Of a stretch of 16,827 nucleotides of DNA, positions 2,138 to 16,408 are shown piece by piece. The DNA lies in contig CALXXY010000011.1 of NCBI GenBank assembly GCA_944392815.1, forward strand, positions 1 through 16,827, in the 5' to 3' direction. The notes under the pieces were generated by a model that saw only the letters and a list, made by a program, of their open reading frames with translations, had not been told where the DNA came from and ran no database searches. The translations under genes were made by a program, and so were the position numbers. This DNA is from an uncultured Alphaproteobacteria bacterium. Lineage in GTDB: Bacteria; Pseudomonadota; Alphaproteobacteria; Rs-D84. Numbering within the stretch: the stretch's first letter is position 1; each line of letters starts with the position of its first letter.

Positions 2138-2887
2138 ATGACACATCAATTTCACCGTGCATTAAATCGTATGGCGTTTTTCACCGCTTTGTTGGTTGCG
2201 GGATTGATTTTGTTTTATGACGCATTTCTGCGTGTGGCATCGGCAAATATTTTTCTGAATGGCATTATTATCGGCACAACGATATTCGGCATTGGGTTAT
2301 GCTTTGTGGAAATGTTCAAATTATTGCCGGAATATAAATGGGCACGCGCATATTTTGCGGGCAAAAAAAATGCCCCCCTGCCCCCGCGTCTGTTGCGTCC
2401 AATTGCGTTGATATTGCGCGCACGCCCGGTACGCATATCGGCCACCACATTGAACGGCATGCTGGACATGATTTTAACCCGATTCGAAGATTCCCGTGAA
2501 TCCACCCGCTATATAACAAACACATTGGTATTTTTGGGATTACTGGGCACATTTTGGGGATTGATTTTAACGGTCGGCGGATTTGCGGATTTAATTGGCA
2601 ATTTGAATTTTGCCGATGAATCAGTTCTGCAAAACATGCAGGCCGGCCTGACACGCCCGCTGTCTGGCATGGCAACGGCATTCACCAGTTCGCTTATGGG
2701 TCTGGCGGGCAGTTTGGCCGTCGGATTCCTGGGGCTGCAGGTTCAATTGGCACAAAACGCCATTTTTCGCGAGGTCGAAGATTACCTGTCCGCCCACACC
2801 AGCGTCGCAACAACAGACACAGTTTCAACTGTATTGCCCCAGATAAATGAAAATCTGACCGCAATCAGACAAACATTTACCGAATAA
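2138..2887 (+). CDS. MotA/TolQ/ExbB proton-channel family membrane protein
   Basis: Two N-terminal hydrophobic segments plus the family motifs LVFLGLLGTFWGL and GMATAFTSSLMGLAGS. Confidence 0.85.
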   Translation: MTHQFHRALNRMAFFTALLVAGLILFYDAFLRVASANIFLNGIIIGTTIFGIGLCFVEMFKLLPEYKWARAYFAGKKNAPLPPRLLRPIALILRARPVRISATTLNGMLDMILTRFEDSRESTRYITNTLVFLGLLGTFWGLILTVGGFADLIGNLNFADESVLQNMQAGLTRPLSGMATAFTSSLMGLAGSLAVGFLGLQVQLAQNAIFREVEDYLSAHTSVATTDTVSTVLPQINENLTAIRQTFTE

Positions 2888-2911
2888 ACCAAACGAAAGA
2901 GAGAGAAAACC

Positions 2912-4024
2912 ATGTTAAACATCAGATTTCGGGAAAAAACAAATACCTGGCCGGCGTTCGTGGATTTATTTTCGAACCTGGTGATTATACTTATCTTTTT
3001 ACTGATAGTATTTGTGTTTTTATGGACAACCACCAGCGTATTTAACCGCGACAGCGGCGCAAAAACTGTGGCCGATTTGAAAAAAACAAACGCCGAACAG
3101 GCCGAACGCATTGTTCAAATGACCGCAGACGAAGAAGAAGCCAAACGCCTGTTGGTGCTGGCGCGCGCCGAATTGGAAAATCTGTCCGCAAACAATGACG
3201 CGCTGTCAAACGAATTGACTCAGGTCGACGCCAGCATGGACGAATTAATCGCCGATTACGAGGCACGCGTTGCCGAACTGCAGGCCCAGGGCACTGATTT
3301 ACAGGCCCAGGTTGCGACCCTGACCACACAACTGAACCAGGCAACACTGGATAAACAGCGCACAGCCGAACTGGAACAGGAACGTCGTGCATTACAGGAA
3401 CAAATGGCCGCCCAACGCGCGGATTTGGCCGAACAATTGAATAAATTACAGGCCGCCCTGGACGCCGCCGAAGAAGCGTCCCATCAAAAGGATATTCAAT
3501 ACGTTGAAATGTCCACCCGCCTGAACAAGGCTTTGGCTGACAAAGTTGCTGAATTAAACGATGTTGCGCAATATCAATCTGTGTTTTACAAAGCGATAAA
3601 AGACGCACTGGGCGACGACAGTTTTATCGAAACTCAGGGCGACAGATTCATTATTTCCAGCGACATTTTATTCGGCAGTGGTTCATATACCATTTCGCCC
3701 GAGGGTAAAAATCAACTGCGTCTGATTGCGAATGTCATTAAAAATCTGGAAAACAAAATCCCAACCAATATCGATTGGATTATTCGCGTCGATGGCCACA
3801 CAGATCGCAAACAGGTCATTGCCGGCACACGTGGGTATTCCAACAATATGGAACTGTCATTATTGCGTGCAAACGCGGTTGTAAATGAATTGGTGGCCGA
3901 TGGCGTATCGCGTCGTCGCCTGGTCCCCAGTGGCTTTGGCGATTTGCACCCGGTCGTACTGGGCACAGACGCACAAAGTTTGCAACAAAACCGCCGCATA
4001 GAATTACAATTAACCAACAGATAA
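2912..4024 (+). CDS. MotB/OmpA-family peptidoglycan-binding protein with long coiled-coil stalk
   Basis: WPAFVDL transmembrane segment carrying the MotB-type Asp; heptad-rich middle region; C-terminal OmpA domain (SDILFGSGS, IRVDGHTD, NMELSLLRA, NRRIEL). Confidence 0.9.
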   Translation: MLNIRFREKTNTWPAFVDLFSNLVIILIFLLIVFVFLWTTTSVFNRDSGAKTVADLKKTNAEQAERIVQMTADEEEAKRLLVLARAELENLSANNDALSNELTQVDASMDELIADYEARVAELQAQGTDLQAQVATLTTQLNQATLDKQRTAELEQERRALQEQMAAQRADLAEQLNKLQAALDAAEEASHQKDIQYVEMSTRLNKALADKVAELNDVAQYQSVFYKAIKDALGDDSFIETQGDRFIISSDILFGSGSYTISPEGKNQLRLIANVIKNLENKIPTNIDWIIRVDGHTDRKQVIAGTRGYSNNMELSLLRANAVVNELVADGVSRRRLVPSGFGDLHPVVLGTDAQSLQQNRRIELQLTNR

Positions 4025-4551: not shown

Positions 4552-4580
4552 AAAAAATCCCGCATAACGCGGGATTTTTT
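4552..4580 (-). terminator. intrinsic terminator of the Cys-rich protein operon
   Basis: AAAAAATCCCGC-ATAAC-GCGGGATTTTTT directly after the stop at 4582. Confidence 0.85.
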
Positions 4581-4581
4581 A

Positions 4582-7086
4582 TTACATTACAATATCTTCA
4601 CAAACCTCTTCGGACGTTTCAGTTGTACAACTTGTATTTCTGTTGTTGTGGAACCAACTGCTGCTGCCCGTTGTTTTGCAATTCTGGGTGACAGTTTGTG
4701 TACAGATATGACATGTTCTGGTATCGCGGCTGAATATAGCACGCACAGTTTTGGTCATACCGCCACCATTCAAACTGGACCCGCCCAGATAGCCGCTGTT
4801 TGTAAACGTCACGCCATCTGCCTGCAGTACCCCAGCGCCGCCCTTGGCCAAATCTTCGGTCGTCAAACCAGAACCAACGTCATAACTGATTGAATATGGC
4901 GGGGTCAACGGTGTTGACGCTTCTACATTGCCGCCGCCCGAACCGCCGTTCTCAGCGATTTTCTGACACATATACTGTGCCAAATCGGCGGACGCATCAC
5001 GTGTGGCCTCGGCAATGGCTGTATTTAATTTATTGTTATAATTATCCTGTGCCTGGCGCAGTGCCGATGCCGCAATCTGCATTTTTACCTGATTCAACAG
5101 GTTCGGGAAACGCCCACTGGTCATGTCGCCTTCGTTCCCGGTGATTTGCGACAAATCACGCCCATTAATGCAGTACTGAATTTCCGGATCACTTTCGATT
5201 AAATCGATGGTGCGGTTAATAGTCCCGGCGATATTGTTCAATTCTTCTTCTATCGCGGAAATAATACCCTCGGAATTTTCAACATTGGCATTACGTTCAC
5301 GTATTTTGGTTATATAATCGCCAACGCCAATATCACCCGGCCCCAGTTTAACTGTGCCGCCTTCGCCATCACCGACAGTTTCGCCGTCCATATCGCCCAT
5401 GACGATACTGCCGAACGAAATCATACCAGTCACACGATATGTTGTGCCGTCTTTTTGGCTGCGCAAAGAACCGGTCCCAATCGTATCATCAGACGCGAAA
5501 CGATTACAATCAGTTGTACTGCCGCAAATTTCAGCCATTTTTTGGTCGACCAAATTCTGGCATTGATCCATCATAGAATTGTCGATATTCAAATACAATC
5601 CCATCAGCATATCGTCCAAATCGTCCATAGAAAATCCTGGATTATTCGCCTTGCACACGACCAGCGAATCAATCGGACAGATATCGTGGATGTAATCGTA
5701 ATCCATACCGATACAGTTTTCGAAATTCGGCCCACAGCGTGTATCCGCGGTAAAGCAATCTTTGACCTCTTGGGTACAGGCATCGACACGCATTGCCGCC
5801 AATTTATCTTCTACATATCCCCAAATCAGTGGTTCCATACGTTCGCACGGGTCAATTTCAACCTTGCAGAAACTGCGCGCCATTTCCGGCCGTGACAAAC
5901 ATGCGTCCATTGTTGCGACGCCTTTGCCCGCGATATCGTCGCGACACGCGGTTTGAATGCACTCGGAAATGCTGGTCAAACATGACTGACGGAATTTAGA
6001 TTCCGCCTGGCTTTCCGCGACCTTTATCGTCGGTGCAGATTCACGCAGGAAATTCGGCCACACCTGGTCACGCACGGCCACGCATTGATCCAAAACATTT
6101 TCGCAAATTGGTCGTTTGGCACTTAACATTTCCATGGTCGACGCAGTTATATCATACGTATCAACCGTATCCACAGTTGTGCCGGCCGTGCTGACCGCGG
6201 CATTATTTTGCATATTTTCCATGGCAATGGTTGCAACGCAGTTTTCCCAGTTTTCGCCACACGCATCCGCTGTCTGCATGCACTTTTTAAATTCAACCAT
6301 ACATTGCCCCAGGTCGTATTTATTCGCGCTTTCGAAACTTTCCTGCAACGCATTACGCACCGCAGATTCCGCCGACGCCAATTCATTTTCGGCCTTGGCA
6401 CGTTGCTGGGCCAACGAATTTTTATACCCCAAACAATCAGACGTTATTTGCCGCGAATACAATTGTTGCAAAAACGCAATATCCCCAGAACATGATTCAG
6501 GCACCTGGTTCACGCACAACTGATTGGCGGCATCATATAATTCCCGCCCCACCATATCGGCAATATTGGCACCCGTCGACGTTCCCCACAAATCATCATC
6601 TGAATCATCAATCGACGTATTCCACAGTGACAACAAATCGGCACGCTTTTTTTCTTTTTCTTCGGCCTCGCTTATCTCGCCCTCGTCCAGGATATTGCCA
6701 TCTTCGTCATAACGACGTTCCCCGGTAAAAATAATATCGGCATCAGCACCCGCCTTGACACGTTCGACTTCTTCGGTGTTCAGGCGATTGGCCTCGTCCA
6801 AAATGTCCTGGATAGCGGCTAATTCGTCGTTATATCCAACTATATCATCGCTGCAATTGCATGCGCCACCACTGGCGTTATCAGTTATACAAAACTGATC
6901 CATACAGCCAAAATACGCGTCATAGCACGCCTGGTCATACAGACCGGTCGCCTCTATCTTGGTTCGAACGGTTGTGCCCTGTTGTATGGCAGATTGTGTC
7001 CCCGACCGGGCCACAGCCAACGCCGCGCCCCCCGCGCACAACGCAACCACAGAAATCACAGCACACGATACAGTTTTTATTTTCAT
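4582..7086 (-). CDS. large secreted cysteine-rich helical protein, paralog A (834 aa), function unknown
   Basis: Long ORF with signal peptide, AGAGAGAG SD, 36 Cys in the mature chain, CxDAYxxCMDQFC motif, ends CEDIVM. Confidence 0.9.
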   Translation of the reverse strand: MKIKTVSCAVISVVALCAGGAALAVARSGTQSAIQQGTTVRTKIEATGLYDQACYDAYFGCMDQFCITDNASGGACNCSDDIVGYNDELAAIQDILDEANRLNTEEVERVKAGADADIIFTGERRYDEDGNILDEGEISEAEEKEKKRADLLSLWNTSIDDSDDDLWGTSTGANIADMVGRELYDAANQLCVNQVPESCSGDIAFLQQLYSRQITSDCLGYKNSLAQQRAKAENELASAESAVRNALQESFESANKYDLGQCMVEFKKCMQTADACGENWENCVATIAMENMQNNAAVSTAGTTVDTVDTYDITASTMEMLSAKRPICENVLDQCVAVRDQVWPNFLRESAPTIKVAESQAESKFRQSCLTSISECIQTACRDDIAGKGVATMDACLSRPEMARSFCKVEIDPCERMEPLIWGYVEDKLAAMRVDACTQEVKDCFTADTRCGPNFENCIGMDYDYIHDICPIDSLVVCKANNPGFSMDDLDDMLMGLYLNIDNSMMDQCQNLVDQKMAEICGSTTDCNRFASDDTIGTGSLRSQKDGTTYRVTGMISFGSIVMGDMDGETVGDGEGGTVKLGPGDIGVGDYITKIRERNANVENSEGIISAIEEELNNIAGTINRTIDLIESDPEIQYCINGRDLSQITGNEGDMTSGRFPNLLNQVKMQIAASALRQAQDNYNNKLNTAIAEATRDASADLAQYMCQKIAENGGSGGGNVEASTPLTPPYSISYDVGSGLTTEDLAKGGAGVLQADGVTFTNSGYLGGSSLNGGGMTKTVRAIFSRDTRTCHICTQTVTQNCKTTGSSSWFHNNRNTSCTTETSEEVCEDIVM

Positions 7087-7117
7087 GACTTCTCTCTCTG
7101 ACCTGTATGACTATGCG

Positions 7118-9325
7118 TCACATATTAATATCTTCGCAACTTTCAATTTCCTGACAGAACTCTTGTTCACCGCCAGCACTGCGTCCCGCGAAATATCCAC
7201 CGACACCGCCAACAACTGCACCGATTGCGGTTCCCCACCCGGGCGATACCATCGTACCGGCCGAAGCCCCCGCCGCCAATCCACCGGCCGCGGCCTGCAG
7301 ACCCGCTGCGCCTTTGGACTGACCACCTGTTTCGCATACCTGCTGCATACGGCACACATGGCAATTACGCAACGCAGGTTCCCACGATACACTGCGGATA
7401 TAACTGTAATTTTTGCTGGATTCGTCCGGTGTTTCAACCTTGTACGTATTATAGCAGTTTTGTTCGGCTGCCTCTAAATCCTGTTGGCGTGACAATTCGG
7501 CAATTTTCGTTTCCAATTCACGCATAGAACGATTTTCCGCATTAATTTGCGCAATCATTTTCGCACTGTTAAACACGCTGTCACCCAAACTGTTGCGGTC
7601 AGACGGTTTTTGACTGTCCTGACACGCGGCCACAGTTTTATCCTGCTCGAACTGTTCGAAAAATTCGTCCACGGCGGCCTCGGTATTGGCGCGAACACTT
7701 TCACGCAACGTCGCCAATTCTTCCTGGGTTTCTGGAACCTCGACCAGTGACGCAATCTGGGTATCTGTCGGCAAACAGGACATATCCGTTCCGCACACAG
7801 CCCCCAATTGTTCGCTGAAATAATTCAAACAGCCCTGCAACATTTGATAATCCATCTGCAACATAGCGGCCTGGACAATAATATCAAATTGCGTTTCATT
7901 TTTGCATGACGGGAACATATCCTGGGGACACATTTCGGCAATTTCCAGCGCACTTTTGCCCACGCATTCAGGCGCAGTGAAATTTTCGCCACATCTGTCA
8001 CGCAAACATGCGTCCACATCGTTTTGACAGAACTGCGTCCGCAAATATCCCAATTTGTCATTTACAACAGTTTTAATCCCCGGAATCATTTCTTCGCATT
8101 CGTCAATAACCGGGCAAATTCCCGCTGCGACATTAACATCAGTCAAACACGCAGAATTCGTTTCTGTGGAACAGCTGTCCTCCAGACACAATTGAATTCG
8201 CGCCAAACATGTTCCACGCGCATTACGATCTGCATACTTTGCGGCATCGGCCAAAATGCTTACGGCTTCGTCCTGCCAATCCTGTAATACGTATTCACGC
8301 ACAGCCATACACTGATCCAAAACATTTTCGCATGCATTGGCACGACGCTGCAGCAAATCCGCATCCAAACAGTTTTCAAAATTCACACCACAACCGCCCT
8401 TGTCCGCGATACAGGACCGATACGCCAACAAACATTCACCACGGTTATATTTGTTTGTCGTATCCAGCATTTCCAAACGCGCCTGGCGAACCGCGGCCTC
8501 GGCCGTGCGCTTGTTGGATTCAGCAATACGTTTTTGGTCATTCAAATATGATTCAAATGTTTTACAATCCTGGACAATCATGCGCGAATACAGCATTTCT
8601 TCCATTTCGGCATCATCGCCACACGCATCCAATCTGCTGGCGCAATATTCAGACGCCATCGCATACAAATTGTCACCAATATCATAATCAGTACCCAAAC
8701 TGACATCGTCATCGGTACCACTGCTTATCCAGTCGGCAAAATTTATCCCCGACACACGGGAACTTTTTTGTGCGGCCTCGCTTTCACCGAACACCAAACG
8801 TGCCTGGGCACCCATTTGTTCACGTTCGACACCCTCGGTATACAGTAAATCCGCCTCTTCCTGAATTTCTTGAATTTCCTGAATCAAAGATTTCGATTGA
8901 TTTATATTTGATGAACATGCGCAACGACTGCCCTCGGATTCGTCCAGCAAACAAAATTCGTCCATACACGCACGATACGCATCACGACACGATTCACTGT
9001 TCGCCACAGGCGTTGCACTTACCGTTGGGGTGGTATTGGTCGCACCGCCGCTGACCGATGGGGTTGTGTTCGTTGAACCCGTTGTTGTATTTGTTGTTGT
9101 GGTATTTGTGACGGCACCAACACTGTCCGACAGCGTCGGCATAAACGTCCCGGCCGTTGTTGTACCGGTATTTGATAAATCAACCGACATGTTTGGCGCA
9201 CGTGCCCCCGCCTGGGCCATGCGGCTGACCCCCACGCGCACCGCCGCAGAATCCGCGCGTGTCGCGGCATTTGCAATCCCAGGCAACACACATAACAATG
9301 TGAAAACAGGTAATAATTTCATCAT
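7118..9325 (-). CDS. large secreted cysteine-rich helical protein, paralog B, with C-terminal glycine zipper
   Basis: Start most likely MMKLLPVFTLLCVLPGIANA (9325 or 9322) after GGGGTGGGA. Thr-rich linker, CRDAYRACMDEFC, 36 Cys collinear with paralog A, ends CEDINM. Confidence 0.9.
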   Translation of the reverse strand: MMKLLPVFTLLCVLPGIANAATRADSAAVRVGVSRMAQAGARAPNMSVDLSNTGTTTAGTFMPTLSDSVGAVTNTTTTNTTTGSTNTTPSVSGGATNTTPTVSATPVANSESCRDAYRACMDEFCLLDESEGSRCACSSNINQSKSLIQEIQEIQEEADLLYTEGVEREQMGAQARLVFGESEAAQKSSRVSGINFADWISSGTDDDVSLGTDYDIGDNLYAMASEYCASRLDACGDDAEMEEMLYSRMIVQDCKTFESYLNDQKRIAESNKRTAEAAVRQARLEMLDTTNKYNRGECLLAYRSCIADKGGCGVNFENCLDADLLQRRANACENVLDQCMAVREYVLQDWQDEAVSILADAAKYADRNARGTCLARIQLCLEDSCSTETNSACLTDVNVAAGICPVIDECEEMIPGIKTVVNDKLGYLRTQFCQNDVDACLRDRCGENFTAPECVGKSALEIAEMCPQDMFPSCKNETQFDIIVQAAMLQMDYQMLQGCLNYFSEQLGAVCGTDMSCLPTDTQIASLVEVPETQEELATLRESVRANTEAAVDEFFEQFEQDKTVAACQDSQKPSDRNSLGDSVFNSAKMIAQINAENRSMRELETKIAELSRQQDLEAAEQNCYNTYKVETPDESSKNYSYIRSVSWEPALRNCHVCRMQQVCETGGQSKGAAGLQAAAGGLAAGASAGTMVSPGWGTAIGAVVGGVGGYFAGRSAGGEQEFCQEIESCEDINM

Positions 9326-9351
9326 TCCCACCCCATACATAATTTATAGTA

Positions 9352-9380
9352 ATTTTATCAAAAGCACCGCCCATGTGCAA
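9352..9380 (-). promoter_or_regulatory. sigma70 promoter for the paralog B-A operon
   Basis: TTGCAC-17 nt-TAAAAT with an extended -10 TG on the minus strand. Confidence 0.6.
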
Positions 9381-9395
9381 GCACATAAAAACAAC

Positions 9396-9424
9396 TTGCA
9401 TTTATTTTTGCAAAATAATATCAT
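9396..9424 (+). promoter_or_regulatory. sigma70 promoter for infA
   Basis: TTGCAT-17 nt-TATCAT, back-to-back with the paralog B promoter. Confidence 0.55.
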
Positions 9425-9464
9425 ATATGCCGAAAAAAATTTCAGTAAATACATAGGATAACTT

Positions 9465-9716
9465 ATGGCAAAAGATGATGTAATTGTATTCAACGGCACG
9501 GTAGAGGATAAATTACCCAACACCATGTTCCGCGTACGTTTGGAAAACGGGCACGAAATTTTGGCAACCGTTTGCGGCAAAATGCGCAAGGCACGCATCT
9601 GGGTCAACGTTGGTGAACACGTTCGTGTTGAAATGACCCCATACGATTTGGACAAGGGCCGCATAACATTTGTCGAACGTAATCGTCCCGCATCGGACAA
9701 CACTGAAAACAAATAA
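9465..9716 (+). CDS. infA: translation initiation factor IF-1
   Basis: MAKDDVI...G.V...[18 protein letters not shown]...GKMRK.RI....[15 protein letters not shown]; AGGA SD. Confidence 0.99.
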
Positions 9717-9723
9717 AACAGAC

Positions 9724-9748
9724 ATGACCGCAAAATGCGGTCATTTTT
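9724..9748 (+). terminator. infA terminator
   Basis: ATGACCGCA-AAA-TGCGGTCAT followed by a T run. Confidence 0.75.
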
Positions 9749-9827
9749 GTTGCCTGTGTGAATAATTATTACTTTTCAATAAAATATATTTTTGTTATCA
9801 TTTATATACATATTATACACAACGGGA

Positions 9828-12305
9828 ATGAAAAGGTTTTTATTCTTTGTCATGGCGTGTTGCATCAGCATCGCGAATGCTGGTGCTGCTGTTCGTGGAA
9901 CAAACTCGGTTGACCGCGCCCAATCCGCCGCGACATCGAACACAAATTCCCAAACGGTAATCGCGCGCACAACAACGCGCACACCCGCGGCCGTATCCAC
10001 AACACGCACAGCCACCGCCCGTGGCGGCGCAACAAATACGGTATCCCGCGCGTCATCAACCGCACGCGGCGCAACCACGTCCCAAACGGTCGCCCGCACC
10101 GCAACCAATCCACGCAGCGCGAACGCCACCCAAACCACCGCCCGCAGCGCGCGCACCAACACCGTCGTACGCAGCGCCACCCCCCAGCAATCACGCGGCA
10201 CCTCAACCGCGGCCCGCAGCGCACGCGCCGCACGCGCAACAACTGTGGCGCCGTCCAGTGTCACGAACACATTCGGCACAGAATACAATGTTTGTCGTGA
10301 CGCATATTTCACATGCATGGATCAATTCTGTGCGACCGCCAACGACAGTTATCGCCGTTGCGTCTGTTCGTCCAGATTGACAGATATCCAGGAACGCGAA
10401 CGCGCCCTGTCCCAGGCGGCCGGACAATTACAGGATTTTCACGATTTAAACATAGAAGTTATTCCCAAAACCGCGGCCGAGGTTAACGCCATGCTGTCCG
10501 CCAGCGAAGGCGAACTGGCCATTACCGAGGACGATTCGGAATCATCGCAACAACTGGCCGGCATACGCGAGGTTTTAAACACATCTAAATCCCAGGCACT
10601 GTCAACACTGGGCACATTGGACATTGCGGGCGACATAAATCAAATTTGGGCAACAACGGATTTGGCGTCTGGCCAAAACATTGCGAATTTAACCGGTGAA
10701 TCATTATACAACGCTGTACACGCCCAATGCGTGGATTTGGTCAGCGAACAATGCGCCAACCAATCAACACTGAACATGGTTGTATCCGCATACGGCATGT
10801 ACATAGAAAACGATTGTTCTGCATTGCTGAACGCATTGGACACCCAATTGGTCCAGGCCAACAGCACAATTCGCGACACAGAACGCGAAATGAACATGGC
10901 GCGCCTGGAAAATTATAACGCCCATAATTCCACCGCCATCAACGAATGTATCGCCCAGGTTCGCACAGACATCACCGCCGACACGGCATGTGGTGCGGAT
11001 TATGTTCATTGCCTGGACATAACAGGGCGTTATTTAAATCGCGACACAGGCGAACCGATTTATTCCCCAGAATTCTATGAATTGGAACATCAAATATCAT
11101 TGGACGGCGACGTATTAACCAACGCAACCAACCGTTTAATTGTCGCCGAATTAAACAGCAAACGTATATATGCCGAACGCGGTCTGGAAACATGCCGCGA
11201 CATCGCGGACGAGGTTTGGGACGAATTCGTCCGCCAGGCCATCGTCGAAATATACCAGGGTCAACAGGAAAAAATCCGCACGGTTAAAAACGAATGCCTG
11301 GACGTGGTGAACGCATGTTATGACGAACAAAGCGAATCGTTAAAGGACTTTAGTAATATCAAAGAAGAATTATTATTGGGTTCCCGTCTGGAATTATCCG
11401 AAGAATTATGCCAGGAAAAATTATACGCCTGCAGCAACCTGTACGGCGACCCGGACGGCGACGGATTGGATTTATTGCTGTCCGCTATGCGTGATATCAC
11501 AGACCAAAAAATCGCCGCCAATTGCCAGGAATTGTTGCAGGCCTTTGCCCAGGATACCTGCACCGTCCCCAGCAACGACAGTTTGCATGCATATCCATAC
11601 GGTTGCCGTGTATACGCACCGGGCGACGCAATATATGCGTCCAAACCATATTGTAATCAATTGCAATGGTCCAACACAGGCGGTGGCCTGGGTGGCGATG
11701 ATGACGACCCCACCCCCACGGGTCCCGGATATTCATGCCCACCATATAAAAAATACATATCATGCACCACTGGCTATTTCATGGCAACAAAAAATGACGA
11801 AGGCACATGGAAATATAACGGCACCCCAACCGTCGGCAATTCATGCCAACCATGTTTACTGCATTATACATGCCCCGGTGGCACAGACAAACCCATTCCA
11901 CCCGTTGGCACGGAAGAAAACGGTGAAATGGACAAAGATTGCGGTGTGGACTATGCCGGCAGTTTGTATCAGCGCATAGTCAGATACGCAACCCAGGTAT
12001 GCACCCGCCCATCTGAATACGACCAGATTACCGCGGGCACCATGAACATTCCAGCCAACGTATTACAGGACGTCAACATTGTCATGGATTCGATCAAGGT
12101 TGACATGTCCACTGCGCTGTCGGCCGAATGTGAACGATTGGGCGGCATATGGGTTGACACCCAATGGGTGGACGAAGATGAAGATCCAGGTGCCCACGAC
12201 GTCACAGGCGACAAACAATACAAATATTTCTATGACGAAACGGGGTCAAATACCAAATGGGGATATTGTGCGGAAATAACGGATACTTCCACATCGTCGC
12301 CATAG
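9828..12305 (+). CDS. large secreted cysteine-rich protein, paralog C, with basic Arg/Thr/Ala-rich N-terminal tail
   Basis: Start reassigned to ATG9828 (MKRFLFFVMACCISIANA signal peptide). CRDAYFTCMDQFC...RCVCSS motif shared with paralogs A/B; about 29 Cys in the mature chain. Confidence 0.9.
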   Translation: MKRFLFFVMACCISIANAGAAVRGTNSVDRAQSAATSNTNSQTVIARTTTRTPAAVSTTRTATARGGATNTVSRASSTARGATTSQTVARTATNPRSANATQTTARSARTNTVVRSATPQQSRGTSTAARSARAARATTVAPSSVTNTFGTEYNVCRDAYFTCMDQFCATANDSYRRCVCSSRLTDIQERERALSQAAGQLQDFHDLNIEVIPKTAAEVNAMLSASEGELAITEDDSESSQQLAGIREVLNTSKSQALSTLGTLDIAGDINQIWATTDLASGQNIANLTGESLYNAVHAQCVDLVSEQCANQSTLNMVVSAYGMYIENDCSALLNALDTQLVQANSTIRDTEREMNMARLENYNAHNSTAINECIAQVRTDITADTACGADYVHCLDITGRYLNRDTGEPIYSPEFYELEHQISLDGDVLTNATNRLIVAELNSKRIYAERGLETCRDIADEVWDEFVRQAIVEIYQGQQEKIRTVKNECLDVVNACYDEQSESLKDFSNIKEELLLGSRLELSEELCQEKLYACSNLYGDPDGDGLDLLLSAMRDITDQKIAANCQELLQAFAQDTCTVPSNDSLHAYPYGCRVYAPGDAIYASKPYCNQLQWSNTGGGLGGDDDDPTPTGPGYSCPPYKKYISCTTGYFMATKNDEGTWKYNGTPTVGNSCQPCLLHYTCPGGTDKPIPPVGTEENGEMDKDCGVDYAGSLYQRIVRYATQVCTRPSEYDQITAGTMNIPANVLQDVNIVMDSIKVDMSTALSAECERLGGIWVDTQWVDEDEDPGAHDVTGDKQYKYFYDETGSNTKWGYCAEITDTSTSSP

Positions 12306-12345: not shown

Positions 12346-12366
12346 TTGATTAAGCAAGAGAGAAAA

Positions 12367-13068
12367 ATGAAAAAAGCATTCATTGTATCGTTTTTATGTT
12401 TATCGTTCGCGCCCGCGGTGGCGGCGTCAATTCCATGGTGGGAACGCCCAACAGTTTGCAAATTGGATCCAACAAAATGCTATACATCTATGGGCATTGG
12501 TTATGACACAGAACAATGGGACGCTGATTCCGGTTGTTGGGGCATGAAAATAATTTGTCCCGACGCATTGACCGCCGGCGGCGATGACCCTGTGGCAATG
12601 GGGCTGCGTGATATTGAACGCGGCACCGGAATCAAATCGGATTTTGACACAAACGTTTTAAATGGCGATTGTTTCGGCATGCGCAAAACAATGGATAACG
12701 GCGCAATGGTAATGTATGGCGACGAATACGTACGCGTATGGTGCGACGCAGGCATATTGGACGGCGACGTTGAATACACTGAATTCGGCGCGTATACATC
12801 ACCGGAAAATCAGCCCACCTGTTCTGAATTGGCGGACATGGGATTGGTCGCAACATTAAACGGCAAATGCTATGGCAAATATTATGACACCGCAAAATAT
12901 CACATTCAGTGCGATGGCAATGATATTTTGCCCAGCCGCCTGGTTTTATTAAACGGTGCTGATTATACGACATCATCAAACGCACCGGCCGATAAAAACG
13001 CCGCAAACAAATTGTTTGACGCGATGGAATCAAAATCCGCCGAACAGCGTAATATTTATTTTGATTAA
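12367..13068 (+). CDS. secreted cysteine-rich hypothetical protein
   Basis: Start reassigned to ATG12367 (MKKAFIVSFLCLSFAPAVAA signal peptide) after AGAGAGA. Nine mature Cys; repeated C[WFY]G motif. Confidence 0.85.
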   Translation: MKKAFIVSFLCLSFAPAVAASIPWWERPTVCKLDPTKCYTSMGIGYDTEQWDADSGCWGMKIICPDALTAGGDDPVAMGLRDIERGTGIKSDFDTNVLNGDCFGMRKTMDNGAMVMYGDEYVRVWCDAGILDGDVEYTEFGAYTSPENQPTCSELADMGLVATLNGKCYGKYYDTAKYHIQCDGNDILPSRLVLLNGADYTTSSNAPADKNAANKLFDAMESKSAEQRNIYFD

Positions 13069-13132: not shown

Positions 13133-16100
13133 TCAGAAATCATATCTGAATTTCAACATACCTGTCTGGGACGTGTAATCTTCGTGTAAATCCAATTCAT
13201 AGTTTACAGAAAATTCCCAGCCCTCGTACATGGCGGTCAACCCGATACCGAATTCACCACCGAACCGCGACAGGCGATCTGCGTCAATCACGTATGACAC
13301 ATTACCCGGTGCGACAACAGTTGACACCACCGCATCAGACAGGAAATCATACGTTGCCGCAGCACTGATTTCCGGACGGAATTTCAAACGTGCCTGCGAT
13401 TCGATATCGAACGCATATTTCACGCCGGCAACCCCGGTCAGATAATCTGTGTCCACGGCTTTGACTGTACCGATTGCACTTTCGTGTTCGTCCTGGGTGA
13501 TGTGCAAATAACGTGCACCAACCATCGGTGTCAACCCAGACGCAAAATCATATCCAGTCATGATTTGTCCACCAAACGAATCGACATCGTATTCAGATTC
13601 CAACGCAAACGCACCATACAGATTGGATTTTTCTGTATAATTCGACATTGTGTAATTCAATGTGCCGTTCACGAACCATTGTGATGGTTTGTATTGGCCA
13701 TACACAAACAAACTGCTGGAATCGATTGTTGTATCACGCGAATTCGAATCGACATCAGTATCATTGTACGCATACCCGACACCGATTGTGTATTTACCGT
13801 TAATCAGCGCATCTGCACCAACGGAAATACCCATGGTATCACCGGTAAACTTGTCGGAATATTTCGCATGATTGTACAGTCCCTGGGCCCAGATACCATA
13901 ATCCATATTGGCACTGTCACCACCGCTGCGGCCAACGGCACCACCCGCCATACGACCCGCCGCCAGTGATAACACCTGGTTCTGGACAGACGACGCAACA
14001 GATTGCGCCACAGGTGTATCGTCCGGGTTCAGTTTGGCTATTTCCTGTTCGACATACCCAACATTCCCCGCGGCCAACTCCTGTTGCGAACGCAGTGAAA
14101 TCGCATTCAGTACCGCATTGTTGGAATTTGCCAACCCCGCAACACTTGCAGCGCCCTGGGTGGACAGCCCTGTGTTTTTGGCAATTTCATCAACAGATTT
14201 TGTTGTCACAATGAATTCGCCGGCCTCGGTACCGCCCGTGACATTATAAATATCACCAAAATCAACCGTGGTGAAATCAACATCATCTGTGCCAAAGATA
14301 TTGTACGTACCAACGCCGCCGATGTTCAATTTCAACGTGCTGTCCGACACAGAAATGCTGTCCGCGTCAATTTTGCCATAATTGTCGGAATTCAACAACG
14401 ACGCAACCAAAGTGCTGCCATCAAACGTGACAGAATTCTGGACGATGGTCGACGTACCAATATCCAGCACGGCACCACCTGATACAGTCAATTTGCCTGT
14501 GTCACCAGTAATACCGCCGGTCAGTTTGGTTGTACCACCATTAATGGTCACAGTTCCCAAATTATGAATGTCGTTGGCCTGGCCACCGGCATAGTTATTT
14601 GAAAACACATTATCCCCAGACATGGTGATTACGCCCGATTTTTCATTATAAATGGCGCCACCAAATTCACCAGCAACATTGGCCTCGAATGTGGTGTCGT
14701 TTAACTTAATCTCTGCAAAATCATTTGCCTGATTACCAACATTCGCAATTGCACCACCCTGCTTGCCGGCCTGATTGCCAGTAAATTCGGATTTATCAAT
14801 CAAACCAATTTTTCCGGCATTGGTAATTGCACCACCCTGTTGGTTAACATTTTCTGTGATCGCCATATTATTCACGAACCGCACATTGGTCATGGATTCA
14901 ACCACGCTGCCCAGCGACCCGTTCCAAAACGCGCCACCATTTCCAGAAACATTGCCTTCGAACAACACGGTGTCCAATTTAGTAATCGTATTTTGATTAC
15001 GCACAGCACCACCGTTGCCACCGATATTATTCATAAACGATGTATTACGTATGGTTCCGATGGTTCCGCCATCACCCTGACTGGTATTATTGATAGCGCC
15101 ACCATTATAACCCTCGTTTTTCACGAACAATGTATGCGCAATTTCATCAATATTGCCCTTGTTATAAATGGCACCGCCACCGCCAGATGATCCTGTGGCT
15201 TTGTTATCGCCAAATGTCATTTGCGATGTACCATTATTGAATACCAATTCGCCTTCGTTCCAAATGGCACCAGCAAAACCCGCCTCGTTCATGGTAAACG
15301 ATGTATCGGCCCCCAAAGTGGTTGTCCCGGCGTTATACAATGCACCACCCCAGGCATTTCCAGTTTCAGACACCACTTTATTACCTTTGAACGCGCCATT
15401 TACAGTCAACGTACCTTCGTTATAAATTGCACCACCCAGTGCGTCCGTTGCATTTGTCGTCACCGAGTTTGTTTCAAAATCGCCATTAACCGTCACCGTG
15501 GCATCCTTGTCGCCGTCAACCTTGATAGAAATCGCACCACCGGTTGACGCTTTGCCAACAGCTTGTTCTGTCAGGGCCGTCACCGTATTCGATTTGAATC
15601 CGCCATTAATGGTCCCAATTTCCACGGGTGTTTTTGTGCCACCTTTGACATAAATGGCGCCACCATTGGCATATGCGTCACCAGTTGCCGAATTGGATTC
15701 AAAATTGCCGTTAATTGTCCCGATTTTGGTAATATCGCTTGACGCCTGGTTTTCTTCGACCCATTTGCCTTCTATATGAATCGCACCACCACCGGCCGAT
15801 ACCATTTTATCTGTATTAGCATACTCGCGTGATTCAACCTTTTCGTCCAACACAGCAGAAACATAATTGCCAATAAAATCGCCATTGATTTCATCAATCT
15901 GGCTGCCAGAATATGCGGCTATGGCACCACCATTTGCCGTTGCTTTACCGGCTATATTCGATGTATTTTCCACACCATTGTTTGTAAAGTCAGCGTTTAT
16001 CGTACCAATTAACCCCAGGTTATAAATCGCTGCGCCCTGGCCATATACGTCATTTTCTTTGTTCGCGTCATTATCACTTTTTGTTATAACAATTTTATTG

Positions 16101-16312
16101 CCAGAAATTCCACCGGGAACATCAATTAACGTATACTCGTCGTTATTAACAGGAACATGCAATACCCCGCCGCCCCTTGATTTGTCTGTCTCGACGGTAA
16201 AAGGTTTATTGCCAGACCATTGTATATCGTCCGCAAATGCGGGCATAATCGCCAACGCCGGCAACACAGAACAGATTTTCACCAAATCTGTCAAACGTTT
16301 GTATGCTGACAT
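13133..16312 (-). CDS. autotransporter (type Va) with Pmp-like GGA(I/L/V)/FxxN beta-helix passenger
   Basis: Start reassigned to ATG16312 after AAGGAGA, with a signal ending PAFA. About a dozen GGA[ILV] and about 15 FxxN motifs. The C-terminal amphipathic beta-barrel runs from YGIWAQG and ends LKFRYDF (terminal Phe). Confidence 0.92.
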   Translation of the reverse strand: MSAYKRLTDLVKICSVLPALAIMPAFADDIQWSGNKPFTVETDKSRGGGVLHVPVNNDEYTLIDVPGGISGNKIVITKSDNDANKENDVYGQGAAIYNLGLIGTINADFTNNGVENTSNIAGKATANGGAIAAYSGSQIDEINGDFIGNYVSAVLDEKVESREYANTDKMVSAGGGAIHIEGKWVEENQASSDITKIGTINGNFESNSATGDAYANGGAIYVKGGTKTPVEIGTINGGFKSNTVTALTEQAVGKASTGGAISIKVDGDKDATVTVNGDFETNSVTTNATDALGGAIYNEGTLTVNGAFKGNKVVSETGNAWGGALYNAGTTTLGADTSFTMNEAGFAGAIWNEGELVFNNGTSQMTFGDNKATGSSGGGGAIYNKGNIDEIAHTLFVKNEGYNGGAINNTSQGDGGTIGTIRNTSFMNNIGGNGGAVRNQNTITKLDTVLFEGNVSGNGGAFWNGSLGSVVESMTNVRFVNNMAITENVNQQGGAITNAGKIGLIDKSEFTGNQAGKQGGAIANVGNQANDFAEIKLNDTTFEANVAGEFGGAIYNEKSGVITMSGDNVFSNNYAGGQANDIHNLGTVTINGGTTKLTGGITGDTGKLTVSGGAVLDIGTSTIVQNSVTFDGSTLVASLLNSDNYGKIDADSISVSDSTLKLNIGGVGTYNIFGTDDVDFTTVDFGDIYNVTGGTEAGEFIVTTKSVDEIAKNTGLSTQGAASVAGLANSNNAVLNAISLRSQQELAAGNVGYVEQEIAKLNPDDTPVAQSVASSVQNQVLSLAAGRMAGGAVGRSGGDSANMDYGIWAQGLYNHAKYSDKFTGDTMGISVGADALINGKYTIGVGYAYNDTDVDSNSRDTTIDSSSLFVYGQYKPSQWFVNGTLNYTMSNYTEKSNLYGAFALESEYDVDSFGGQIMTGYDFASGLTPMVGARYLHITQDEHESAIGTVKAVDTDYLTGVAGVKYAFDIESQARLKFRPEISAAATYDFLSDAVVSTVVAPGNVSYVIDADRLSRFGGEFGIGLTAMYEGWEFSVNYELDLHEDYTSQTGMLKFRYDF

Positions 16313-16408
16313 ACTTTCTCCTTTGTTTAAGTATACAAAACCCTTCTGTTCTTTTACGGTATCACAGTTGGTAATACTTGCAACAAAAATTAATTTGAAC
16401 AATTTCCC

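Follow-up and report, generated by a model that had tools for sequence, protein, structure and literature searches.

The window analysed here, contig CALXXY010000011.1 of an uncultured Alphaproteobacteria bacterium (GenBank assembly GCA_944392815.1) at its full length of 16,827 nucleotides, carries three genes (A, B and C) for exported, Cys-rich, distantly related proteins. The main finding is that A and B, together with A2-type paralogs encoded elsewhere, appear to end in a beta-hairpin tail with a membrane-type element, and that the tail of A is an allele exchanged separately from its core. At a probability of roughly 45%, we favour the reading that A, B and A2-type proteins are the rod subunits of an outward-facing apparatus that contacts a partner cell and inserts into its membrane. 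The window is a complete contig from a 927-kb genome in 18 contigs, whose relatives are Candidatus Enterousia of the order Rs-D84, and in Rs-D84 about 3% of the DNA goes into this Cys-rich rod family. Rs-D84 is a widespread uncultured gut lineage of rod-shaped cells with reduced genomes of about 0.9 Mb; most biosynthesis is gone, and these symbionts or parasites have a partner-dependent lifestyle and are thought to live off other cells, with the partner and the contact mechanism not known (PMC12306168). That article contains no mention of a family of Cys-rich rods. Rs-D84 is present in flagellate-free termites as well (PMC11257099).

A, B and C each start with a hydrophobic signal-like segment, which agrees with the signal peptides claimed in an earlier sequence-only reading of this DNA, and contain 38, 37 and 31 Cys, of which 36, 36 and 29 follow the signal. 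Their Cys content of 3.8-5.0% compares with a median of 1.0% for 693 crudely called open reading frames (ORFs) of at least 150 aa. In BLASTP comparisons, A and B share 31% identity over 479 aa (E 2e-55), A and C 24% (E 2e-25) and B and C 25% (E 6e-15), and judged by sequence the three are true paralogs with a kinship far beyond chance; C has only the N-terminal core in common with A and B and lacks the tail. The motifs C-x-DAY-x2-CMD[QE]FC-x9-C-x-CS and G-x2-LY-x6-C shared by all three, and the ending R-x-CH[IV]C...CEDIxM shared by A and B, are present as the earlier reading had described them, and the spacing of its third block, given as CG-x6-C, is actually CG-x5-C. The one-to-one alignment that it proposed for the 36 mature Cys of A and B also held, as each of the 36 mature Cys of A falls on a Cys in two orthologs of B (92% identical to the B of the window) and in a B-like protein from another family; an automatic three-way alignment of A, B and C misplaces the last five Cys, which the tail alignment places. 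All 36 Cys are retained in at least 98% of orthologs (65 of A, 66 of B), and in C the first 19 mature Cys are kept in 63/63 orthologs and the remaining ones in 79-100%. Because of the export signals, the even Cys numbers and the invariance of these residues, we infer that the Cys pair as intramolecular disulfides.

The repeated unit is a module of about 65 residues with the pattern C-x6-C-x4/6-C(G)-x5-C...C-x6/7-C. A module profile built solely from 10 repeat units of distant-family proteins gave matches of 35.7, 8.6 and 15.6 bits in A, of 34.4 and 9.2 bits in B and of 22.6 bits in C, the best of 600 shuffles reaching 6.7 bits. The AlphaFold model of A (pLDDT 72.6, pTM 0.42) is helical, with helices of 35-53 residues and a terminal beta-sheet with a long hairpin, and the model of B residues 295-530 (pLDDT 86.2, pTM 0.57) consists of small helical knots on continuous helices. 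Profile matches and models agree in predicting that A and B are rods of 6-Cys helical modules. After the signal, a linker rich in Ser, Thr, Ala and Arg (54-76%) was found in 10 of 11 members scored, the linker of A being very short, and a lipobox pattern was absent from all 11 (A, B, C and eight more).

The tail-bearing proteins differ in what they carry at the hairpin tip, and by sequence three kinds of candidate membrane-type element are located at the same chain end of A, B and A2. In B, the tip is a glycine-zipper helix pair in 67/67 aligned sequences, and this membrane-type hairpin corresponds to the hydrophobic Gly-rich tongue that had been noticed earlier in one paralog. Pfam glycine-zipper models scored 16.6 bits on B (cut-off 25, E 0.007) and 23.9 bits on the ortholog in genome G003 from another family (cut-off 27, E 3.6e-5), both below the cut-off. 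In A, the tip loop belongs to the types WFHN (35), GFLGI (21), NWFR (5) or other (4) among 65 orthologs, with Lys/Arg flanks; a basic-flanked loop of the three named types occurs in 61/65. Immediately ahead of the tail strands, many A2-type proteins have two or three helices that are hydrophobic, with Kyte-Doolittle values of 1.6-3.2 in nine scored tails, which were picked by eye among 17 tail-bearing frames, the other eight being unscored and showing no such stretch by eye. The B hairpin, the A loop and the A2 hairpins are candidates for membrane-inserting segments of differing length. Apart from its signal, C shows no hydrophobic segment and, from its sequence, is a member of a sister subfamily having the rod base and not the tip.

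The tail of A is an allele that is exchanged separately from the core. Among the 120 closest A homologues (the best 120 of 1487), 101 have a WFHN tail and 19 a GFLGI tail. The window protein (P0001) is 100% identical to homologue P0056 in the core and 39% in the tail, whereas with P0054 its core identity is 92% and its tail identity 100%. The break between core and tail lies at about aa 690-750, and the exchanged part comprises the last ~125 residues. The identity of the tail is over 25 points lower than that of the core in 11/67 A orthologs, in 0/68 B orthologs and in 15/63 C orthologs, and in C the drop is uniform and without two classes. The tip class of A requires 21 changes on a 64-row tree built from B and the core of A, when its four states need only 3 and shuffles require 25.35 on average. 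A second tail in inverted orientation, lacking signal and core, was found in three genomes. In one of them (locus L005), arms of 373 nt that are 99% alike surround 708 nt, with WFHN and GFLGI tails; in the second (L214), an 1849-nt contig is bounded on either side by identical 141-nt arms and holds two tails that differ; and in the third (L223), an A2-type gene has a perfect 69-nt arm. By their coordinates the inverted arms are in the same reading frame, so that an inversion would exchange the tails; at these spare-tail loci, DNA inversion may therefore swap tails. No recombinase-like neighbour was found beside the cassettes when their surroundings were compared with the recombinase-like proteins of the source genome; no family search was run on those loci.

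A part of the protein in contact with something outside the cell would be expected to vary in this way, and a tail end facing the cell's own membrane would have little reason for swapping. If that end faces outward, a conserved hairpin that inserts and, next to it, a variable tip that grips would be what a device for contact and insertion needs. The rods might also be non-piercing fibres of a surface coat or adhesin, whose tails vary to evade phage or antibodies or to alter adhesion. The swapped tails and inversion cassettes suit such fibres as well, as do the faster-evolving C-terminal part of C (36% mean identity over aa 601-700) and EGF/EB-like sub-threshold matches in 3/11 C-terminal pieces of other members. 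We nevertheless consider this unlikely, as the B tail is conserved as much as its core, every tip allele is hydrophobic or aromatic, and plain adhesins do not need the transmembrane-length hairpins of A2.

The source genome encodes about 14 family members, 13 found with an iterated profile and one added by the repeat profile, which occupy 30.7 kb or 3.3% of the genome and are scattered among housekeeping genes. A core profile built from 11 cores matches 119/121 Rs-D84 genomes, with 9-19 matches per genome in all 91 others of the same family and 0-6 in other families, numbers of profile matches not being copy numbers. In a sample of Alphaproteobacteria the same profile matches 4/401 genomes, all four of them Rs-D84, and 0/397 others, which answers the call of the sequence-only reading for a profile search of the taxonomic range; a library-wide search returned 908 representatives at E ≤ 0.001, the taxonomy not being given by that search. 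The tail profile matches 93/121 genomes, namely the source genome, 91/91 of its family (2-8 matches each) and G003, which was in the training set of that profile. Median dN/dS, measured against 10 close loci of 77, amounted to 0.072 for B, 0.087 for A, 0.095 for C, 0.108 for the adjacent gene D, 0.051 for ribosomal protein L9 and 0.178 for the neighbouring autotransporter; with dS near saturation these values are rough. The cores, whose conservation comes close to that of L9, are fixed parts under purifying selection and not variable antigens.

Such a core feature, under purifying selection in 119/121 genomes and dispersed among housekeeping genes over 3.3% of the genome, is also what an envelope scaffold would look like, that is, a disulfide-braced periplasmic or outer-membrane lattice of the cell itself in which the zipper of B would anchor in the cell's own outer membrane in the manner of SlyB/YfgH rings. 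The sub-cut-off glycine-zipper scores of B and of its distant ortholog fit this too, YfgH and SlyB being outer-membrane glycine-zipper proteins (10.64898/2025.12.22.696046). A scaffold leaves the allele exchange and the invertible spare tails at the membrane-facing end unexplained, the lipobox is absent from all members scored, and the even, invariant, module-wise Cys set would fit intramolecular bonds better than cross-links, so that we regard it as somewhat unlikely. Even as a scaffold, these proteins would constitute a family of helical disulfide repeats that is new and is maintained in the absence of any recognisable DsbB.

Gene order and phylogeny bear on which of these proteins belong together. 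Genes D, C, B and A occur together in 61/77 loci and D directly follows C in 62/77; the 77 loci were selected by the A/B motif, and the exceptions are mostly contig ends or loci of A2 paralogs. The gene infA lies between C and B in 67/67 loci that hold both. In a tree of 38 cores, which has several long branches and leaves deep forks open, the orthologs of A, of B and of C each make up a starred clade of their own, the A2 group is the sister of A, and C groups with paralogs on contigs C12, C3 and C4; by sequence, C thus belongs to a different subfamily from A and B. The separate clades and the conserved order agree with the earlier idea of ancient, non-redundant paralogs. The proposal that A, B and C make up a three-paralog system survives as to the paralogy and fails as to the triad, C being on the opposite strand beyond infA, in another subfamily and without a tail hairpin. 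In G003, a B-like gene and two A-type genes stand in tandem, followed by two smaller relatives, the run lying two genes after rpoA-rplQ; among the loci examined, B with two A-type genes in tandem occurs only there. One-to-one orthology of these two A-type genes with A and A2 is not supported, as both group together in the tree. The A2 gene of the source genome adjoins rplQ and is cut by a contig end (G000:C2:3-1667), with its 3' half outside the assembly; A2-type genes occur in 1-4 copies per genome, and assemblies often break within them (loci L256-L263). From the tandem in G003, the tree grouping and the other clade of C, the natural tail-bearing set therefore appears to be B, A and A2-type proteins, with C a neighbour from another subfamily.

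Helical subunits that are paralogous and whose membrane elements differ in length, as in AhlABC (PMC6602965), and the B/A-type tandem in G003 would also suit a released multi-component pore-forming toxin that uses B, A and A2 in the manner of Hbl, Nhe or Ahl. We judge this very improbable: there is no sequence match to ClyA/Hbl models, the proteins have 740-830 aa with 36 Cys, their genes are strict single-copy core genes and not patchy accessory loci, and many family members (C was checked) lack a hydrophobic element. The pore or fusion idea of the sequence-only reading gains support from A and A2 having their hydrophobic tips at one and the same end, and no Hbl/Nhe or fusogen homology was found.

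Searches for known families and folds support the earlier statement that no known domain is recognisable. For A, B and C there was no family match over the cut-off in Pfam or NCBIfam, none in PHROGs, where tape-measure profiles were matched only by the glycine zipper, and none in a PDB sequence search with three profiles. Foldseek returned no match at E ≤ 0.001 for the model of A or of B 295-530, BFVD and PDB included, and in these two databases no viral or eukaryotic class I/II fusogen fold was matched at that threshold. With VIA-align, the best hit of A (Z 8.9, rmsd 9.7, 110 aligned) was a designed coiled coil and was rejected as generic; the tail strands of A gave gasdermin-like RCD-1, perforin, C5b8 pores and levivirus coats at Z 5.3-5.7, which are generic long-hairpin matches, and the modules of B reached Z 6.0 at best. 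ESM Atlas yielded only unnamed clusters for A, B and C (0.79-0.83), and DUF637, colicin and PT-TG clusters for an A2 tail at 0.75-0.79, a chance level that was not used. The look-alikes GFR-alpha, ciliate Er pheromones and CFEM were not among the fold matches listed, no direct comparison having been made, and neither was a ClyA-type helical bundle, which that listing does not exclude given the pTM of the A model. A description of the family was not found in the literature on Rs-D84/Enterousia, supplementary material being outside the scope, and as far as searched this family of helical disulfide repeat proteins is undescribed.

Export machinery that could bring such rods to the surface is present. 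VirB4, VirB11, VirD4, a PilB-type ATPase and a secretin occur in 5/5 genomes tested, from five families, and the source genome also has VirB8, VirB9, VirB10, TcpQ, prepilin peptidase, BamA and Slam. VirB5 (PF07996) was over the cut-off in 0/5 genomes and gave no match on A, B or C, and TrbL/VirB6 was over the cut-off in 1/5 genomes and not recognised in the source genome. For disulfide handling, the motif scan and Pfam revealed one DsbA-like and one exported glutaredoxin-like protein, and DsbB and VKOR were each over the cut-off in 0/5 genomes; an expanded Dsb system, which the sequence-only reading had wanted checked, is thus not seen among the proteins tested. Several observations stand beside these. 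VirB10 is unusually long (827 aa; G000:C1:257282-259765, L175:12283-14766), its N-terminal domain being Ig-like and its C-terminal extension rich in Cys. Two membrane proteins with CPxC right after a signal-like segment (G000:C12:10771-11280, L079:2772-3281; and G000:C2:184985-185536), found in 3/5 genomes and without a Pfam match over the cut-off, might be the DsbB-type oxidase that is missing, or a different redox partner. Runs of 4-6 exported, mostly Cys-rich genes in two other families (L205:2014-10642 in G001; L207:2560-7997 in G029) adjoin a pilin-like gene or the prepilin peptidase, a putative link to the type IVb pilus that was seen by eye.

For the contact apparatus that we favour, the following course of events can be envisaged. 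The proteins would be exported by Sec and stapled by intramolecular disulfides in the periplasm; either the type IVb pilus/secretin or the VirB/D4 system could provide the route to the surface. Paralogous rods would then assemble side by side with their beta-hairpin ends together, the variable tail of A would choose or first grip the partner surface through its hydrophobic loop, and the glycine-zipper pair of B and the hydrophobic hairpins of A2 would insert as anchor, pore or conduit. Assembly, export route, location, binding and pore formation are all predicted here; the conserved B tip, the exchanged A tip, the conserved cores and the tail subfamily in 91/91 genomes of the family are consistent with outward contact. 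The more specific proposal that B and A2 pierce the partner membrane as a feeding or delivery conduit, with the exchangeable and sometimes invertible tip of A setting the partner, is more tentative and rather doubtful. If it were true, the rods would make up a pore or junction without relatives among the known secretion translocons, toxins and fusogens, and the tail alleles would serve as probes for the host.

Several results weigh against the contact apparatus. The allele pattern of the A tip keeps some tree signal, 1.2% of 500 shuffles reaching 21 changes or fewer. Spare cassettes are rare, occurring at 1/59 A loci with at least 1.2 kb downstream, and phage or antibodies could equally drive the tail variation. 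In four other Rs-D84 families, 28 genomes with the core gave no match to the tail profile, so that the tail subfamily is not order-wide. The B hairpin is mildly hydrophobic (Kyte-Doolittle ~1.0) and resembles glycine zippers of outer-membrane lipoproteins that reside in the cell's own envelope. With a pTM of 0.42 the global shape of A is uncertain, and within the window A, B and C have no linkage to secretion genes. If the favoured reading is true, the proteins represent a fold family not seen before as well as a novel means of attaching to a cell and tapping it, and the natural tail alleles of A make the question of the host directly testable.

Features of the window discussed here, with positions and strand (+, forward; -, reverse;., none assigned)
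Feature	Position	Strand	Remarks
Hairpin with A/T runs on its flanks	4552..4580	.	directly 3' of the A stop; seen in the sequence itself, absent from the output of the terminator scan
Gene A	4582..7086	-	834 aa; signal peptide, 8-Cys head, 6-Cys helical modules, long helices, C-terminal beta-hairpin domain (predicted); 36 mature Cys
Swappable tail of A (aa 708-834)	4582..4965	-	WFHN allele; single tail, no spare cassette in this genome
Hairpin tip loop of A (aa 804-819, between C803 and C820)	4630..4677	-	aromatic/hydrophobic, basic-flanked in orthologs; putative role at the membrane interface
Head motif of A (C54-C78)	6853..6927	-	
Gene B	7118..9340	-	740 aa as called; 36 mature Cys; 31 nt upstream of A, in tandem
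Glycine-zipper two-helix hairpin of B (aa 680-719)	7184..7303	-	inserted at the position of the A tip loop
Head motif of B (C118-C142)	8915..8989	-	
infA (translation initiation factor 1)	9465..9716	+	between C and B; not a family member
Terminator-like hairpin	9724..9744	+	3' of infA, separates infA from C
Gene C	9828..12305	+	825 aa; signal, Arg/Thr/Ala/Ser-rich linker, shared head and module, own Cys-rich C-terminal part; 29 mature Cys
Head motif of C (C156-C180)	10293..10367	+	
Gene D	12346..13068	+	exported 10-Cys protein; probable ATG at 12367; not a family member

The probable start of B is at 9325/9322, downstream of the ribosome-binding-like site GGGGTGGGA, and the hairpin behind A likely marks the end of a B-A transcript. 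A promoter scan of the window found 25 sites compared with 16.7 ± 4.2 in shuffles, a weak excess. Two metatranscriptome runs gave short contigs on A, B and C, with one contig spanning the B-A junction (7080-7323), and a third run gave almost none; such contigs reveal neither strand nor level and were therefore not used as evidence. Gene D has no Pfam match or paralog and is kept directly after C, whose partner it possibly is. The autotransporter at 13133-16402 has repeats of the Chlamydia-PMP type and evolves much faster than A-D, and in the contig of one RNA run 556 other letters replace 517 nt of its passenger. A MotA/ExbB-like gene followed by a coiled-coil OmpA-domain gene (2138-4024) is strongly conserved and often found downstream of A, and a small exported Cys-rich ORF (112-402, 96 aa) lies near repeated intergenic elements, with similar ORFs in related loci. 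Elsewhere in the source genome, exported proteins ending in a small beta domain (G000:C9:15838-21216, C16:59-2152, C10:15481-18642, C1:193646-195385, C2:68419-69864, C2:72638-73543 and C3:73196-74362) have one or two glycine-rich hydrophobic hairpins and in some cases a 6-Cys module. Tandem pairs of exported proteins of ~315 aa and ~1000-1100 aa with Gly/Thr-rich hydrophobic hairpins (G000:C4:76062-80272 and C5:398-4353) look by eye like translocator or two-part pore pairs, with no family match over the cut-off.

When compared with known systems, A, B and A2 combine features of several. The ClyA-family tripartite toxins (AhlABC, SmhABC, Hbl, Nhe) are two to three times shorter than A or B. In contrast to these toxins, A and B are built of disulfide modules, carry the membrane element on a C-terminal beta-hairpin, belong to a family of ~14 paralogs and are encoded by core genes; A, B and C do not form one operon, C being divergent beyond infA and of another clade. 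No homology of A, B or C to ClyA, Hbl, Nhe or Ahl was detected with Pfam, NCBIfam or the PDB sequence search with three profiles. The likeness would consist in paralogous helical subunits with divided membrane roles; in toxins of the AhlABC type, one subunit binds a single leaflet and one has a membrane-spanning hairpin (PMC6602965).

Two further comparisons concern envelope proteins. SlyB/Pcp and YfgH have a glycine zipper, which the two-helix zipper of B may resemble (weak Pfam matches), whereas B has no lipobox, is a large Cys-rich rod and carries its zipper inserted at the tip of a disulfide-closed beta-hairpin, where its paralogs have a short loop instead. OmcA and OmcB are exported, Cys-rich core envelope proteins of the host-dependent Chlamydia, to which the family, if it is a scaffold, may be likened functionally; it differs from them in the lack of a sequence match (Pfam), in its helical modular build, in the swappable hydrophobic tails and in that DsbB was not found in the five genomes.

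With regard to secretion systems, A, B and C resemble VirB5-type pilus-tip proteins as Sec-exported helical bundles in a genome with a VirB/D4 system but no recognisable VirB5, although Pfam gives no match of A, B or C to VirB5 or to translocators of type III secretion systems (T3SS). The FTGG/FTAG-type turns in the A2 hairpins are, we presume, reminiscent of T3SS translocator segments. Like the PilV proteins of the R64/TP114 shufflons, A has a constant N-terminal part and an exchangeable C-terminal domain, and the source genome possesses a type IVb pilus with secretin and TcpQ; the C-terminal domains of PilV are switched by DNA inversion and set the partner specificity (PMC9045228). Unlike PilV, A is not a pilin, having an ordinary signal-like N-terminus and no N_methyl match, the repeats of the A/A2 loci are 69-373 nt of coding sequence and not short recombination sites, and a cassette holds at most two tails, with none in most genomes. 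Taken as a whole, the apparatus would function in the manner of a multi-component pore or translocon whose specificity tip is shufflon-like, while being a member of neither family.

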